Part shown: in pieces, positions 1,246-8,160 of the stretch
How the letters are laid out: every line of letters begins with the position of its first letter
Numbering within the stretch: position 1 is the stretch's first letter
DNA from: a virus
Strand: one strand, 5' to 3'
IMG/VR virus record: IMGVR_UViG_2706796252_000001
Location: 7,695-71,694 of that record
DNA length: 64,000 nt
Program-made: the position numbers and the translations under genes
Notes under the pieces: generated by a model
Told to the model about the DNA's origin: nothing
The model's database searches: none
What the model saw: the letters and a program-made list of their open reading frames with translations, nothing else

Positions 1246-1518
1246 ATGAACATAGCTGCATGGCTTCACAATGGTGAGTGGCACCTGTTCACGTGTGAGT
1301 TGAATAGGGTTGTATCGGACCAAGCATATTACCAAGCTGGTCTGAAAGGACCAGATAAGCGGGATTTAGTGCTTCTCAGAATGACCACAAAGAGGAGAAA
1401 TACTGCTTACTGGTTTCACTTCAGGAAGGACAACCCTTTCAATAAGTACATGCCTGTAGCTTATACCGAGGAAATACCGAAAGAACTTCAAGCACTGTTG
1501 ACCATCTACGGTCTTTAA
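1246..1518 (+). CDS. small hypothetical protein (paralog C)
   Basis: ATG 3 nt after the previous stop; 90 aa. Confidence 0.75.
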   Translation: MNIAAWLHNGEWHLFTCELNRVVSDQAYYQAGLKGPDKRDLVLLRMTTKRRNTAYWFHFRKDNPFNKYMPVAYTEEIPKELQALLTIYGL

Positions 1519-1552
1519 TTCCAATCCACCTTCGTTTAATGGGAACTAAACC

Positions 1553-1792
1553 ATGACCCCTTACACCGCTTTCGAATACCTGTTGATCGACGCTGCAAAC
1601 CAAATGGGCCATGACAAGTGGCTCTTCGAACAACGTATCCAATGGTGCTACGACAACTTCGACAACCTGGAGAACCTGGAGTGCAACGAGAAGACTCGTC
1701 CGCAGTATCTCAAGGCTGTCATGGCCATCCGTGCTGCTCAGCGTGGTGAGCCTGTTGGCCATCTGGTAGGGCTTGATGCCTGCTGCTCGGGT
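1553..1792 (+). CDS. RNA polymerase II subunit 2 (gp16-like), exon 1
   Basis: 80 codons ending GLDACCSG, the first half of T7-type motif A (T7 DGSCSGIQ), followed at once by TGA at the intron start. Confidence 0.92.
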
Positions 1793-2792
1793 TGATTTCT
1801 AGCCCCTTCATGGAGCAATCCATGTCGATCACTTCCTTAATTGCTGGGAACCCCTTATAGCCACGCTACCACTGCGAGCCGAAAGGCAAAGCGAAGGTTT
1901 GAAAAGTGTGTGGATTGGGCAATCAGCAGCCAAGCTCCGTATGGGAGAAGGTTCAACGACTAGGCTTAGGCCGTACACCCAAGTGGGTGGAAATGGGAAG
2001 CACCCTTCTGGGGTGAAGATATAGTCTTGCCTGTGGAGAAATTCACAGCAGTGTCAGTAGGGCGTGGTAACATATGCACTCCAGAACAACTAGGAGGTCA
2101 CATGAACCACTACGCTTACTTGCTTACTTTCGCAGACGGGATGTACTACATAGGTGCCCGCTCGTGCAAGCTACCGCCAGAATTAGATACCACGTATCTC
2201 GGATCTGGTAGGGGCTTACCGGTGGACCGAAAAGACAACCCGCCTGTGAAAACCATCTTGAGAACCTTCAATACTCGCCAAGAGTTGATGGACTTCGAAC
2301 GGAGTTACATCGAAGAACACAACTGTGTTGCGTCACCCAACTGGTACAACCAGCGTGTTGCAACGCATGACCGCCATGGTTCCGTCAGCTGGAACAAAGG
2401 CATCAGTGTGGATCGTACTGAAGCAGGTAAAACTTTCAGCCGTCGCTATAATGGTAATCGCACCCCAGCGATGATTGTTGCTCATGCAGCGACGGCTGAA
2501 AAGATTCGTGGAACTAAGTGCAAAGACAAGGGCCATGCTGGTACCTCAAATACAGCATTCCAGCCTTGGTACTACGTGACCCCAGAAGGGGTTTACGTAG
2601 AAATCCACGATCAAACCAAGAAAGATGTAGCACCTACTTTGGGACTTAAGGAACATCAAATAGCCAATCGCATGCGGGAGTGCAATCAGCACAAACCTGC
2701 ACCGACGAAACCTTTGAAAGGTTGGATATTTGGAAATCTCCCACGTCCTGCTGACACGACAGAAGATTAACGACCTTCTGTGAAAACAAGCG
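1793..2792 (+). ncRNA. group I self-splicing intron (IA2-like), 1000 nt, with nested endonuclease ORF
   Basis: Exon ends in U1792, which can wobble-pair with G1802 in P1. P2 hairpin 1809-1824. P element AATTGCTGGGAA 1839-1850; Q element AATCAGCAG 1921-1929; R element GTTCAACGACTA 1951-1962; S element AAGATATAGTCT 2016-2027. P3 CTTCC/GGAAG; two hairpins between P7 and P3' (P7.1/P7.2); P8 2001-2015; terminal G2792. Removal restores DACCSG-MQIMS in frame. Confidence 0.93.
2102..2770 (+). mobile_element. intron-encoded GIY-YIG homing endonuclease (222 aa)
   Basis: AGGAGG SD before ATG 2102; N-terminal YAY-x8-YYIG GIY-YIG motif with downstream R and E; C-terminal helix-turn-helix (NUMOD1-like) region. 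The track start at 2027 lies in the ribozyme core. Confidence 0.85.
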
Positions 2793-3794
2793 ATGCAGAT
2801 CATGTCCGCCCTGGGTGGCTGTGAGTCTGGTGCCCAAGCCACCAACCTCATCAACACTGGCTTCCGCCAGGATGCGTACAGCCTGGTCACCACTGCTGCC
2901 TCTACCCACCTGGGTGAGTCGGTAGGTGAGATCAAGCGGTCGGACATCAAGACTGCAACCATGACCCACTTCTACGGTTCGAAGGCTGAGCCGAAGAATC
3001 TGTTCGGGGAAGACACCCCTGAACTGGAAGCCTTCTACCAAGGCGTAGAGATGGTTGCCCCCATCGCCAACGAGATGCGGGATGACCTGATCAACACTTG
3101 GCAGCCCTATGCCATGAAGCACTCTTGGGTGCTGCCGGACAACTTCCACTCCATCGTCAAGTCCACGGACGTGTTCGAGACTCGGGTGGAAGTGGACGAG
3201 ATGGAAGGCGCAAGCTTCGAGTACATCTACAAGCAGGACTGCGGTGTAGAGCGTGCTGTGAAGAATGCTGCCAACGTCATCCACTCCATCGACGCCTACG
3301 TACTGCGTTCCATGCACCGTCGTTGCAACTACGATCGTGAAGCCATCTCCAAGGTAATGGAGTTGGTTTGGGGTGAACTGATGGACCGTCACTCTGGCAA
3401 GTGCGAAGCCGAAGTAGCCAGGGACGACAAGCTGGCCGTCTACGAAGACCTGTATGACCGTACCAACATGGTCGATGCAGTGATCTTCAACCACATCAAC
3501 GCTGTCAACGTATGTCAGCTGGAGACTGACCACCTGGAGGCTCTGTGTGCCCTGTGGGATACCATGCGTGTGCATGAACCCTTCGAACTGGTCACCGTGC
3601 ACGATGAGTTCAAGTGCCACCCGAACTTCTGCAACGAGATGCGCCAGCACTACATCAACATCTTCGCCGAACTGGCCGACAGCAACGTCCTCGACGACAT
3701 TGTTCACCAGATCACTGGAAGCCATGTCAGCTACGACCGGGCGATCCACAACCTGTCTGAGCTGATCCGTGATAGCGAGTATGCGCTGTCTTGA
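2793..3794 (+). CDS. RNA polymerase II subunit 2 (gp16-like), exon 2; spliced product about 413 aa
   Basis: Begins MQIMSAL (continuation of motif A); motif B KTATMTHFYG; motif C VTVHDEF; no evident SD before 2793. Confidence 0.93.
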   Translation: MQIMSALGGCESGAQATNLINTGFRQDAYSLVTTAASTHLGESVGEIKRSDIKTATMTHFYGSKAEPKNLFGEDTPELEAFYQGVEMVAPIANEMRDDLINTWQPYAMKHSWVLPDNFHSIVKSTDVFETRVEVDEMEGASFEYIYKQDCGVERAVKNAANVIHSIDAYVLRSMHRRCNYDREAISKVMELVWGELMDRHSGKCEAEVARDDKLAVYEDLYDRTNMVDAVIFNHINAVNVCQLETDHLEALCALWDTMRVHEPFELVTVHDEFKCHPNFCNEMRQHYINIFAELADSNVLDDIVHQITGSHVSYDRAIHNLSELIRDSEYALS

Positions 3795-3803
3795 GGTTAG
3801 TGG

Positions 3804-3818
3804 GCGTCTTCCAGACGC
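3804..3818 (+). promoter_or_regulatory. variant TCC-loop hairpin (possible vRNAP-type promoter)
   Basis: GCGTCT-TCC-AGACGC, 6-bp stem with 3-nt loop, resembling the hairpins at 4044 and 6838. Confidence 0.3.
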
Positions 3819-3835
3819 TACATGGACCCGAATTT

Positions 3836-3873
3836 GCCTGATCCCAGAAATGGGATCGGGCGCTTATTTTTTT
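3836..3873 (+). terminator. intrinsic terminator after the RNAP II genes
   Basis: GCCTGATCCCA-GAAA-TGGGATCGGGC stem followed by a T-rich tract. Confidence 0.8.
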
Positions 3874-3891
3874 GAGGGGAGCTTAGAAACC

Positions 3892-4044
3892 ATGAGTAAA
3901 CACAGGCTATGCAAGTACTGTGGTAAGCCAATAGTGCTGGTCCCCAGTGCAGAAGAGAGGGCCAAGAAGTTCGGAGAGTCACCCAAGTTCTACCTCAATC
4001 TCTTCTATGCCCACGGGGATTGTATTGTGAAGAGTCGAGGTTGA
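3892..4044 (+). CDS. small hypothetical protein (50 aa, CxxC and HxxC)
   Basis: ATG 3892 after GAGGGGAG SD; MSKHRLCKYCGK...HGDC may bind zinc. Confidence 0.65.
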   Translation: MSKHRLCKYCGKPIVLVPSAEERAKKFGESPKFYLNLFYAHGDCIVKSRG

Positions 4045-7326: not shown

Positions 7327-8160
7327 GTGTCCCAAGCCAATGAAAAAACAATCGAGCGGATCGGCAAGATCCTTCTCATCTTCAAAGCGTCCGAAGGCGA
7401 GATTCGTCCTCACTTCTGGTTGACCGGCCCTTCTGGTTCGGGCAAGTCCTTCAACATCATGGACCAGTGCAATCGCCTGGACATCATGCTGCCCATGACC
7501 GAGGTCAACTGTGCATCGCTGACCAAGGAAGGCTACTCCGGCCTGAGCCTGAGCAAGGCACTGGCCCCACTGGCTACCCTCGGCAATGTCCCCAACGTCG
7601 TATTCTGCGACGAGATGGACAAGCTGTTCCTCTCCGGTAATTCCAACGACAGCCATGCCAACGAGATCAGCATCGGCGTGCAGAACGAGTTCCTGCGTGT
7701 GCTGGAAGGCAGTACTACCCAGACCTTCGGCGACTACGGCAAGTACAACACGGTCAGCGTCGAGCGTTCCTTGTTCATCTTCGCCGGTGCGTTCAACGGC
7801 CAGGAGAACATGGACGCCACCGAACTGCTGAAGTGCGGCGTCAAGACCGAGTTCATCGGTCGTACTGGCTTGGTCTACAACCTGGAGAAACCGACCATGG
7901 AAGCCCTGGTCCAGTACCTCAAGGAATCGGAACTGTGGGCGAACTACCGCTCTCTGTTCCCGAAGGAAGACCACAAGAAGGCCGAGAAGTGGCTGATCAA
8001 GGAGATCGGCCGCCAGTATCCCGACAGCAACATTGGCGTCCGCTTGATCAACACCTTGATCCACCAGTACTACATCAACGCCGGCGAAGACTCCAAGCCC
8101 CAAGCGGGCAAGAAGGAGTTCGCCCGTATCCTCGACTTCAGCACCGGGAGACTGAAATGA
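7327..8160 (+). CDS. ClpX/HslU-like AAA+ ATPase (minimal)
   Basis: Walker A GPSGSGKS, pore loop EGYSG, Walker B FCDEMDK, VQNEFLRVLEG (ClpX VQQALLKLIEG), EFIGR, GVR; AAGGAG SD before GTG. Confidence 0.85.
   Translation: MSQANEKTIERIGKILLIFKASEGEIRPHFWLTGPSGSGKSFNIMDQCNRLDIMLPMTEVNCASLTKEGYSGLSLSKALAPLATLGNVPNVVFCDEMDKLFLSGNSNDSHANEISIGVQNEFLRVLEGSTTQTFGDYGKYNTVSVERSLFIFAGAFNGQENMDATELLKCGVKTEFIGRTGLVYNLEKPTMEALVQYLKESELWANYRSLFPKEDHKKAEKWLIKEIGRQYPDSNIGVRLINTLIHQYYINAGEDSKPQAGKKEFARILDFSTGRLK

Follow-up and report, generated by a model that had tools for sequence, protein, structure and literature searches.

In this study, we analysed a 64,000-nucleotide (nt) stretch of viral DNA, positions 7,695 to 71,694 of IMG/VR record IMGVR_UViG_2706796252_000001 (hereafter the window), and concluded that its gene for the large subunit of the N4 gp16-like RNA polymerase II (RNAP II) is most probably interrupted by a mobile, self-splicing group I intron of type IA, which has a long extension on its 3' side and includes the additional hairpins P7.1 and P7.2. 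We put the probability of this reading at about 0.92. The genome is that of a Litunavirus of Pseudomonas aeruginosa, an N4-like podovirus (Schitoviridae), and over window positions 1400-4000 its closest relative is phage LP14 (98% identity). The element is of a familiar type, a mobile group I intron with a GIY-YIG endonuclease gene; precedents exist, and an earlier first-pass annotation of the sequence had delimited it correctly. Our reading rests on a match to the group I family, a fold with covariation, the exact collinearity of the exons, the rules of a U before the 5' splice site and a G at the intron end, the fold of the endonuclease, and the patchy distribution of near-identical copies.

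The two parts of the polymerase gene fit together exactly. The open reading frame (ORF) at 1553-1795 terminates with ...GLDACCSG and then UGA, and the ORF at 2793-3794 opens with MQIMSAL; these are precisely the coordinates at which the first-pass annotation had the gene break at ...LDACCSG and resume 1000 nt on at MQIMS. It had also predicted that removal of 1793-2792 would leave a protein of about 413 amino acids, and joining 1553-1792 to 2793-3794 indeed gives 1242 nt and 413 amino acids, the length of the uninterrupted gene of phage LIT1. The alignment that it proposed with intronless genes of related phages is collinear: the joined exons align to the LIT1 gp16-like gene without a gap at 95% identity, and the junction (marked by a slash) reads TCGGGT/ATGCAG here and TCGGGC/ATGCAG in LIT1. 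In the PHROG RNA polymerase profile phrog_2051 the matches of the two exons abut exactly at profile positions 80/81, and PF00940 matches both exons. The insertion lies between codons G80 and M81, after D75-A-C-C-S-G80 and five residues past the catalytic aspartate of motif A. The LIT1 orthologue, which lacks the intron, has 413 amino acids and shares about 97% identity with the joined exons; it matches N4 RNAP II gp16 (6dt7_B) with E 5e-57 over 2-413, which sets LDACCSG/MQI opposite LDATSSG/LQI and TVHDEF, with the HD of motif C, opposite TVHDCF. Weak, consistent matches place the insertion block opposite a D-G-x-C-x-G-[IL]-Q block, which is found in mitochondrial RNA polymerases and in those of T7 type. 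The D-G-x-C-x-G-L-Q block is motif A, which carries the metal-binding aspartate, and the position inside motif A that had been claimed beforehand agrees with the alignments to N4 gp16 and to the T7-type block. According to a review, motifs A, B and C are all present in gp16 (PMC4496689).

The covariance-model check suggested by the first-pass annotation was positive. Rfam model RF00028, a single model that covers all group I subgroups, matches 1783-2048 with 82.7 bits (E 1.6e-19; model positions 1-253, complete) against a gathering score of 50 bits; it is the sole Rfam match within the window, and all 10 homologous loci give RF00028 matches of 75-98 bits. Helices were placed by hand with each pair checked, and the ribozyme core extends over 1809-2048 (Table 1). 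Those named earlier were all recovered, from P1 with its U1792.G1802 wobble and P2 with its GCAA loop to P3, P4, P7, P8, P9 and the terminal G2792, as were the two hairpins between P7 and P3', with covariation. Pairs were counted on a sequence-only MAFFT alignment of 10 related phage introns, from the window, LP14, phPLST, PAP02, the coliphages nepoznato and Pollock, and the jumbo phages HPP-Temi, 2050HW and SL2 (two copies). Across P2-P9, including the P3/P7 pseudoknot and P7.1/P7.2, 96% of pair cells were paired, compared with 33-45% in a control in which the partners were slid by 1-3 columns. Both sides had changed in 39 of 67 pairs, and the observed values were reached by none of 500 shuffles. 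Such double changes were found in 5/6 pairs of P3, 3/5 of P8, 3/3 of P7.1 and 4/5 of P7.2, and P4 and P7 were invariant. At the same site in PAP02, where exon 1 is 96% identical, the intron core is 79% identical to that of the window, with compensatory changes in P2, P3, P5a, P5b, P8 and P9. The intron is probably of IA type, an assignment that rests on P7.1 and P7.2. Among the weak blastn matches to the intron core there were 94 Escherichia phage records.

The splice sites could be placed to the base. The last codon of exon 1 is GGU in all seven intron-bearing Litunavirus alleles and GGC in all seven sampled intronless alleles, and this synonymous C-to-U change at -1 supplies the U needed by group I splicing. 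Moving either boundary by one base breaks both the -1 U rule and the terminal G rule. The pairing of GGGU with (U)AGCCCC is kept in nine distant variants, and the final intron base is G in 9/9 variants (omega-G2792 here). Because the covariance-model match and the compensatory substitutions are accompanied by intronless sister alleles with a perfect -1 U/C split, the identification of 1793-2792 as a group I intron with these splice sites is supported. Two other pairings were considered and rejected. The P1 register of the Rfam alignment (U1793 with G1802) fits neither the intronless allele nor the G-C pairs in P1, and the covariance-model alignment of P1 is loose. An alternative long-range P9 was put down to chance: the P9 3' strand UUCACAG 2042-2048 has a perfect complement in CUGUGAA 2779-2785, but PAP02, variant L019 and other variants do not conserve it, and covariation is seen in the local P9 hairpin instead.

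The Rfam model stops at P9, and 744 nt remain before the 3' splice site. Here we describe for this part a 3' domain, absent from the first-pass annotation, that consists of P9.1 and P9.2. P9.1 comprises 17 base pairs (bp), two of them G.U, with a duplex energy of -34.4 kcal/mol (z -6.2 versus shuffles), and a stem of different sequence stands at its position in 7/8 other variants (PAP02, GGUUACGAUUCU/AGAGUCGUAACC; L021, CAUUUCUUUUG/CAAAAGAAAUG; also L024, L028, L029 and others). At the P9.2 position, 9/9 variants have a hairpin of 7-10 bp with covarying stems of different sequence and a conserved loop, A[U/G]UAACGA, which includes the endonuclease stop codon; P9.2 was assessed by per-sequence folds, as loop lengths vary by 1 nt between variants. 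Because the position of the P9.1 stem is kept with different sequences and P9.2 follows it directly, P9.1 is predicted to loop out the endonuclease gene and to return the 3' splice site to the core.

Table 1. Features of the interrupted RNAP II large-subunit gene in window coordinates; RNA helices are predicted.
Feature	Position	Strand	Details
Exon 1, N4 gp16-like RNAP II large-subunit gene	1553-1792	+	80 codons, the last ones ...GLDACCSG; motif A aspartate, D75; phrog_2051 positions 1-80, E 6.5e-36; collinear with LIT1 and 6dt7_B
Group I intron	1793-2792	+	1000 nt; begins UGA (in-frame stop straight past the 5' splice site), ends G2792; RF00028 82.7 bits
P1	1789-1794/1800-1805	+	exon GGGU and intron UG paired with internal guide UAGCCC; wobble U1792.G1802
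P2	1809-1814/1819-1824	+	GCAA loop
P3	1832-1837/1995-2000	+	pseudoknot with P7
P4	1842-1847/1923-1928	+	
P5	1852-1854/1917-1919	+	P5a/P5b extension: P5a 1861-1866/1908-1913, GAAA hairpin 1878-1887
P6; P6a	1929-1931/1950-1952; 1935-1938/1944-1947	+	
P7	1958-1962/2022-2026	+	GACUA/UAGUC
P7.1; P7.2	1963-1972; 1976-1989	+	two hairpins between P7 and P3'
P8	2001-2005/2011-2015	+	
P9	2031-2037/2042-2048	+	GAAA loop
P9.1, 5' strand	2051-2067	+	long-range stem; GUGUCAGUAGGGCGUGG
Hairpin over endonuclease Shine-Dalgarno (SD) sequence and start	2071-2104	+	GGAG 2093-2096 with CUCC 2079-2082; AUG 2102-2104 with CAU 2071-2073
GIY-YIG homing endonuclease gene	2102-2770	+	222 amino acids, 669 nt; strong SD AGGAGG 2092-2097; phrog_314 'homing endonuclease', E 7.5e-14
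P9.1, 3' strand	2741-2757	+	CCACGUCCUGCUGACAC; within last endonuclease codons (LPRPADT)
P9.2 hairpin	2759-2781	+	ACAGAAG/CUUCUGU; loop AUUAACGAC contains endonuclease stop codon UAA 2768-2770
3' terminal single strand	2782-2792	+	ends omega-G2792; 10-11 nt past P9.2 in all variants
Exon 2	2793-3794	+	333 codons, MQIMSAL...; phrog_2051 positions 81-401, E 5.8e-131

The protein encoded within the intron has the fold of an I-TevI-like GIY-YIG homing endonuclease and would act as one. In its AlphaFold (AF2) model, with a mean confidence score (pLDDT) of 86, residues 1-90 align with the I-TevI catalytic domain 1mk0 (Z 8.2, root-mean-square deviation 2.9 Å, 85/97 aligned; VIA-align), and residues 138-215 resemble the DNA-binding region of I-HmuI (Z 5.4); the model also matches the UvrC N-terminal domain with Z 5.1. 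A Foldseek search of the model against PDB gave no match at E<=0.001. We found 78 homologues, and among 36 that were aligned, PF01541 was matched by 10 and PF19835 (SegE_GIY-YIG) by 7 at E<0.01. The residues Y4-A-Y6, Y16-I-G18 and R20 are present, and Y16, E66 and N83 are invariant across the 36; E66 and N83 may correspond to E75 and N90 of I-TevI, judging from where they lie in the fold rather than from a residue-by-residue superposition. All variants keep the ORF open; nonsynonymous divergence (dN) is 0.27-0.56 and synonymous divergence (dS) is saturated. In the hairpin over the SD sequence and start codon, the anti-SD partner changes along with the SD sequence (CUUC/GAAG in L019, CAUUCC/GGAGUG in PAP02, ACUCC/GGAGU in L023). 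Pairing of the tail CGACCUUC with the SD region GGAGGUC was considered as well and rejected; it amounts to 7 bp in the window and 5 bp in PAP02 and is absent elsewhere, and the local anti-SD hairpin is better conserved.

The distribution of the intron is scattered. An intact 1242-nt gene was present in about 62 of 70 Litunavirus records, and the insert was present in eight records, which represent six phages, in addition to this genome. The intron cores of the six phages are 99.0-99.7% identical, and their RNAP II exons are only 96-98% identical to those of LIT1. On the Litunavirus exon tree, which exon recombination may blur, five changes are required to account for the presence of the intron, and branches with strong support force at least three of these; the total is no fewer than with random labels. 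Such a distribution fits recent horizontal spread and points to mobility. Around the insertion point, alleles with the intron often carry synonymous differences from the intronless sequence, which is uniform there (CUG to CUU/CUA at -18, CAG to CAA at +6); these differences could reflect co-conversion or target immunity. The same intron also occupies the same D-A-x-x-S-G site in nine diverse N4-like loci (metagenomic, IMG/VR contigs), one of them close to coliphage N4, and the exons of the variants are 40% to 98% identical. In one variant (L028:1306-2299, IMGVR_UViG_3300026125_000119), the insertion is one nucleotide further 3' (GGG U/UA CAG), in phase 1 versus phase 0, and the GGGU context of P1 is kept. 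The PAP02 intron (L004:2202-2888) belongs to a second lineage, with an endonuclease of 69% amino acid identity and nearly identical exons; its endonuclease (213 amino acids) is about nine codons short and ends at a TAG that lies in the 3' strand of P9.1.

Several observations weigh against a mobile, self-splicing intron. The window endonuclease falls below the threshold of the Pfam GIY-YIG model PF01541 (12.9 versus 22.6 bits). The P10 helix proposed in the first-pass annotation held only in part: GAUUU 1794-1798 does pair with AGAUC 2797-2801 of exon 2, and L019 has AACUU/AAGUU in the same register, which amounts to two compensatory changes, but the helix is weak and stands 4 nt off the splice site, and because of this offset from the junction we keep P10 as a tentative candidate. 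In two small transcriptomic runs of 2017 (X15 and X19) this phage is represented at 100% identity, and the only contigs in the interrupted gene cover 1690-1843 (crossing the unspliced 5' junction), 2269-2460 (endonuclease gene) and 3239-3435 (exon 2). No spliced or junction-spanning contig was present in the four runs examined, a result that is uninformative on splicing because of a depth of about 2-3 and the loss of minor forms from contigs. X15 and X19 show that RNA-seq data exist from an infection with this isolate or one nearly identical to it. A similar-looking insertion in g39 of the N4-like phage 10Gb fails to splice and gives a two-piece enzyme (preprint 10.1101/542787); therefore, appearance alone is no proof of splicing.

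If the insertion did not splice, the polymerase would be assembled from three pieces, the gp15-like subunit, an 80-amino-acid N-terminal piece and a 333-amino-acid C-terminal piece translated from AUG 2793. 'Genes in pieces' are known for NrdA of phage Aeh1. Exon 2 in Litunavirus does begin with AUG and stands as a separate coding sequence (CDS) in public records, the lack of spliced RNA in the transcriptomic contigs would agree with such an arrangement, and a non-splicing case has been described in an N4-like DNA polymerase gene (10.1101/542787). The main argument against it comes from the homologous intron-bearing genes, in which exon 2 begins with AUA, GUU, CUA, ACU, UUA or CCA, with GUU at best a rare start codon. 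Because the homologues have no usual start codon there, the AUG at 2793 appears to be simply the Met codon of the Litunavirus genus, and translation of the downstream piece from the junction without splicing is unlikely; in the window itself, no SD sequence precedes 2793 (GAAAACAAGCG-AUG). Moreover, the core, P9.1 and P9.2 are maintained by compensatory changes, which can be understood only if the RNA functions in folded form, the synonymous change at -1 tracks the intron perfectly, and the split would sit just past the catalytic aspartate, inside the most conserved block. We therefore regard a three-piece polymerase as highly improbable.

It is also conceivable that the intron splices but has an endonuclease that lacks activity or has ceased to move it, and that the patchiness has come about by ordinary recombination with occasional precise loss. 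The Pfam score below threshold and the C-terminal truncation of the PAP02 copy at 213 amino acids would fit such a history; Litunavirus genomes are known to recombine (PMC9786124), and recombination may blur the exon tree itself. However, the ORF is intact in all seven Litunavirus copies and in all metagenomic variants, E66 and N83 do not vary, the protein is strongly conserved despite saturated synonymous change, and the intron copies (99-99.7%) are far more alike than the flanking exons. This history is therefore unlikely, although clearly less so than a three-piece polymerase, and a self-splicing intron that is still mobile remains the reading we prefer.

Considering these results, we propose a model in which splicing, its timing, the activity and target of the endonuclease, and the translational coupling are what we infer from sequence and predicted fold. 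In N4, the early region is transcribed by the injected virion RNA polymerase. As the RNAP II gene lies in the early region, its pre-mRNA would likewise be made by the virion polymerase. The exon 1 end GGGU would pair with the internal guide in P1, with the U1792.G1802 wobble, and the P3-P9 core would fold. The 17-bp P9.1 would loop out the 669-nt endonuclease gene and, together with P9.2, bring G2792 to the guanosine site. Two transesterifications would then join ...UCGGGU to AUGCAG..., giving the predicted spliced junction ...CUGCUCGGGU-AUGCAGAUC... and the predicted junction peptide …LDACCSGMQIMSALGG…, and the 413-amino-acid subunit would be restored. The UGA straight past the 5' splice site would keep ribosomes out of the ribozyme, and the hairpin would occlude the ribosome-binding site and start codon of the endonuclease. 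For I-TevI, translation competes with intron folding; by analogy, translation of the endonuclease and folding of the 3' domain should compete here, because the last codons and the stop codon lie inside P9.1/P9.2. In a mixed infection, RNAP II alleles that lack the intron would be cleaved by the enzyme near ...CTGGATGCCTGCTGCTCGGGC/ATGCAG..., and the intron would be copied in during their repair.

Because all middle transcripts are made by the polymerase whose gene the intron interrupts, the endonuclease might also serve as a weapon against intronless Litunaviruses, and splicing, and with it the early-to-middle switch, might be sensitive to translation of the intron ORF. This extension is drawn by analogy and is tentative; we consider it unlikely. 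If true, cutting of the intronless RNAP II gene would delay middle transcription and convert the rival phage. Intronless Litunaviruses make up about 90% of sequenced isolates, including the therapy-cocktail phages PEV2, DEV and PYO2. The analogue of the proposed role is the intron endonuclease of the jumbo phage PhiPA3.

The closest well-known systems are the T4 nrdB (sunY) and td introns, which belong to subgroup IA2 and have I-TevI-type GIY-YIG endonucleases; in nrdB (sunY), the ORF is looped out by a long-range stem, so that the 3' splice site comes to lie at the core again. The present intron resembles them in an IA-type core with P7.1/P7.2 and an ORF looped out of a peripheral or 3' helix. 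Also shared are a GIY-YIG endonuclease with an N-terminal catalytic and a C-terminal DNA-binding domain (Z 8.2 to 1mk0), a stop codon just past the 5' splice site, an occluded endonuclease ribosome-binding site, and an insertion in the catalytic-site codon block of an essential enzyme. In contrast to them, the host gene here encodes an RNA polymerase of the T7-type single-subunit family rather than an enzyme of nucleotide metabolism, and the endonuclease stop codon stands in the P9.2 loop, 22 nt from the 3' splice site.

The first-pass annotation had tentatively taken introns in N4-type RNAP II genes to be undescribed, and on this point it has to be corrected. A spliced intron in g16 of the G7C-like coliphages N4G2 and Sz33 has been demonstrated by reverse transcription PCR and a junction peptide (2019 preprint, bioRxiv 10.1101/542787). 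That element likewise carries an endonuclease and lies in the same gene family of N4-like phages, but it is inserted elsewhere, in QAVMTAFYGSEAK, about 55 codons further downstream than the site in motif A, and it is about 800 base pairs long with reportedly no Rfam match, whereas the intron here is a canonical RF00028 member at D-A-x-x-S-G. The record of phage Pa_WF01 (OQ848593) has the same intron at the same site (core 99.7% identical); there it is an automatic ncRNA feature, 'Intron_gpI', of the 266-nt core only, with the exons as separate CDSs and the ORF as 'hypothetical protein', and the Pa_WF01 paper is silent on the intron. An HNH endonuclease within the RNAP II gene of phage ZC08 was reported in 2017 (PMC5418858); ZC08 was not among the Litunavirus matches and its enzyme is of HNH type, and we take it as a different case. 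In a review of 2015, gp16 was described as divided into two parts in two N4-like species (PMC4496689). We found no paper on the Litunavirus motif A intron or its wider family in a search made largely without subscription journals.

In jumbo phages, PhiPA3 has an intron in a multisubunit RNA polymerase beta gene, and its endonuclease mediates interference competition (Birkholz et al., 2024, as relayed in PMC12908238). The cores are related to the one described here: HPP-Temi, 2050HW, SL2 and PhiPA3 are among the nearest blastn matches, the first three share the covarying helices, and in both cases an essential transcription enzyme of Pseudomonas phages is interrupted. Unlike here, however, the interrupted polymerase belongs to an unrelated family, the endonuclease and its target differ, and the competitive role has been shown for PhiPA3 only. 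In HPP-Temi (L016:1440-1725) and 2050HW (L017:1471-1754), the related group I introns split 'RNA polymerase beta subunit' genes into two CDSs, and no intron is annotated.

Related introns also occur in other genes. Escherichia phage nepoznato (MN850571; L006:2452-2793) has a group I intron without an ORF (RF00028 92.9 bits; 77% identical to the window core), which separates the hypothetical-protein CDSs nepoznato_257 and _256, probably one interrupted gene. Escherichia phage Pollock (KM236242; L005:2946-3298) has an unannotated group I intron (101.4 bits) upstream of a fragment of an N4 gp24-like ATPase; this ATPase gene is probably interrupted, and the 87-nt CDS CPT_Pollock30 may be its exon 1. 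An interrupted gp24-like ATPase gene has been reported in the Vibrio N4-like phages JA1 and VchO139-I (PMC3670811). Around the polymerase gene of the window lies the early/middle transcription module, in which the gene for the RNAP II small subunit (N4 gp15-like) ends at 650 and three small ORFs separate it from the gp16-like gene. Downstream, within 3801-3873, a hairpin GCGTCT-TCC-AGACGC directly follows the RNAP II stop codon, and a second GC-rich hairpin, GATCCCAGAAATGGGATC, with a T run resembles an intrinsic terminator.

As the first-pass annotation had anticipated, automated annotation presents the polymerase in pieces: in LP14, VL1, FBPa1, phPLST and PAP02, it was deposited as separate CDSs. 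In at least six deposited Litunavirus genomes, and in many metagenomic N4-like ones, the large subunit of RNAP II is given as a pair of CDSs with no stated relation and a hypothetical protein; the correct annotation is a joined CDS with an intron feature. The variants at one site form a natural data set for the co-evolution of intron, endonuclease and host gene, including the variant shifted by one nucleotide. Litunaviruses are used therapeutically against P. aeruginosa, and intron-bearing and intronless isolates in one cocktail may convert one another or interfere. Furthermore, the middle programme of these phages would hinge on a ribozyme that acts on an early transcript.

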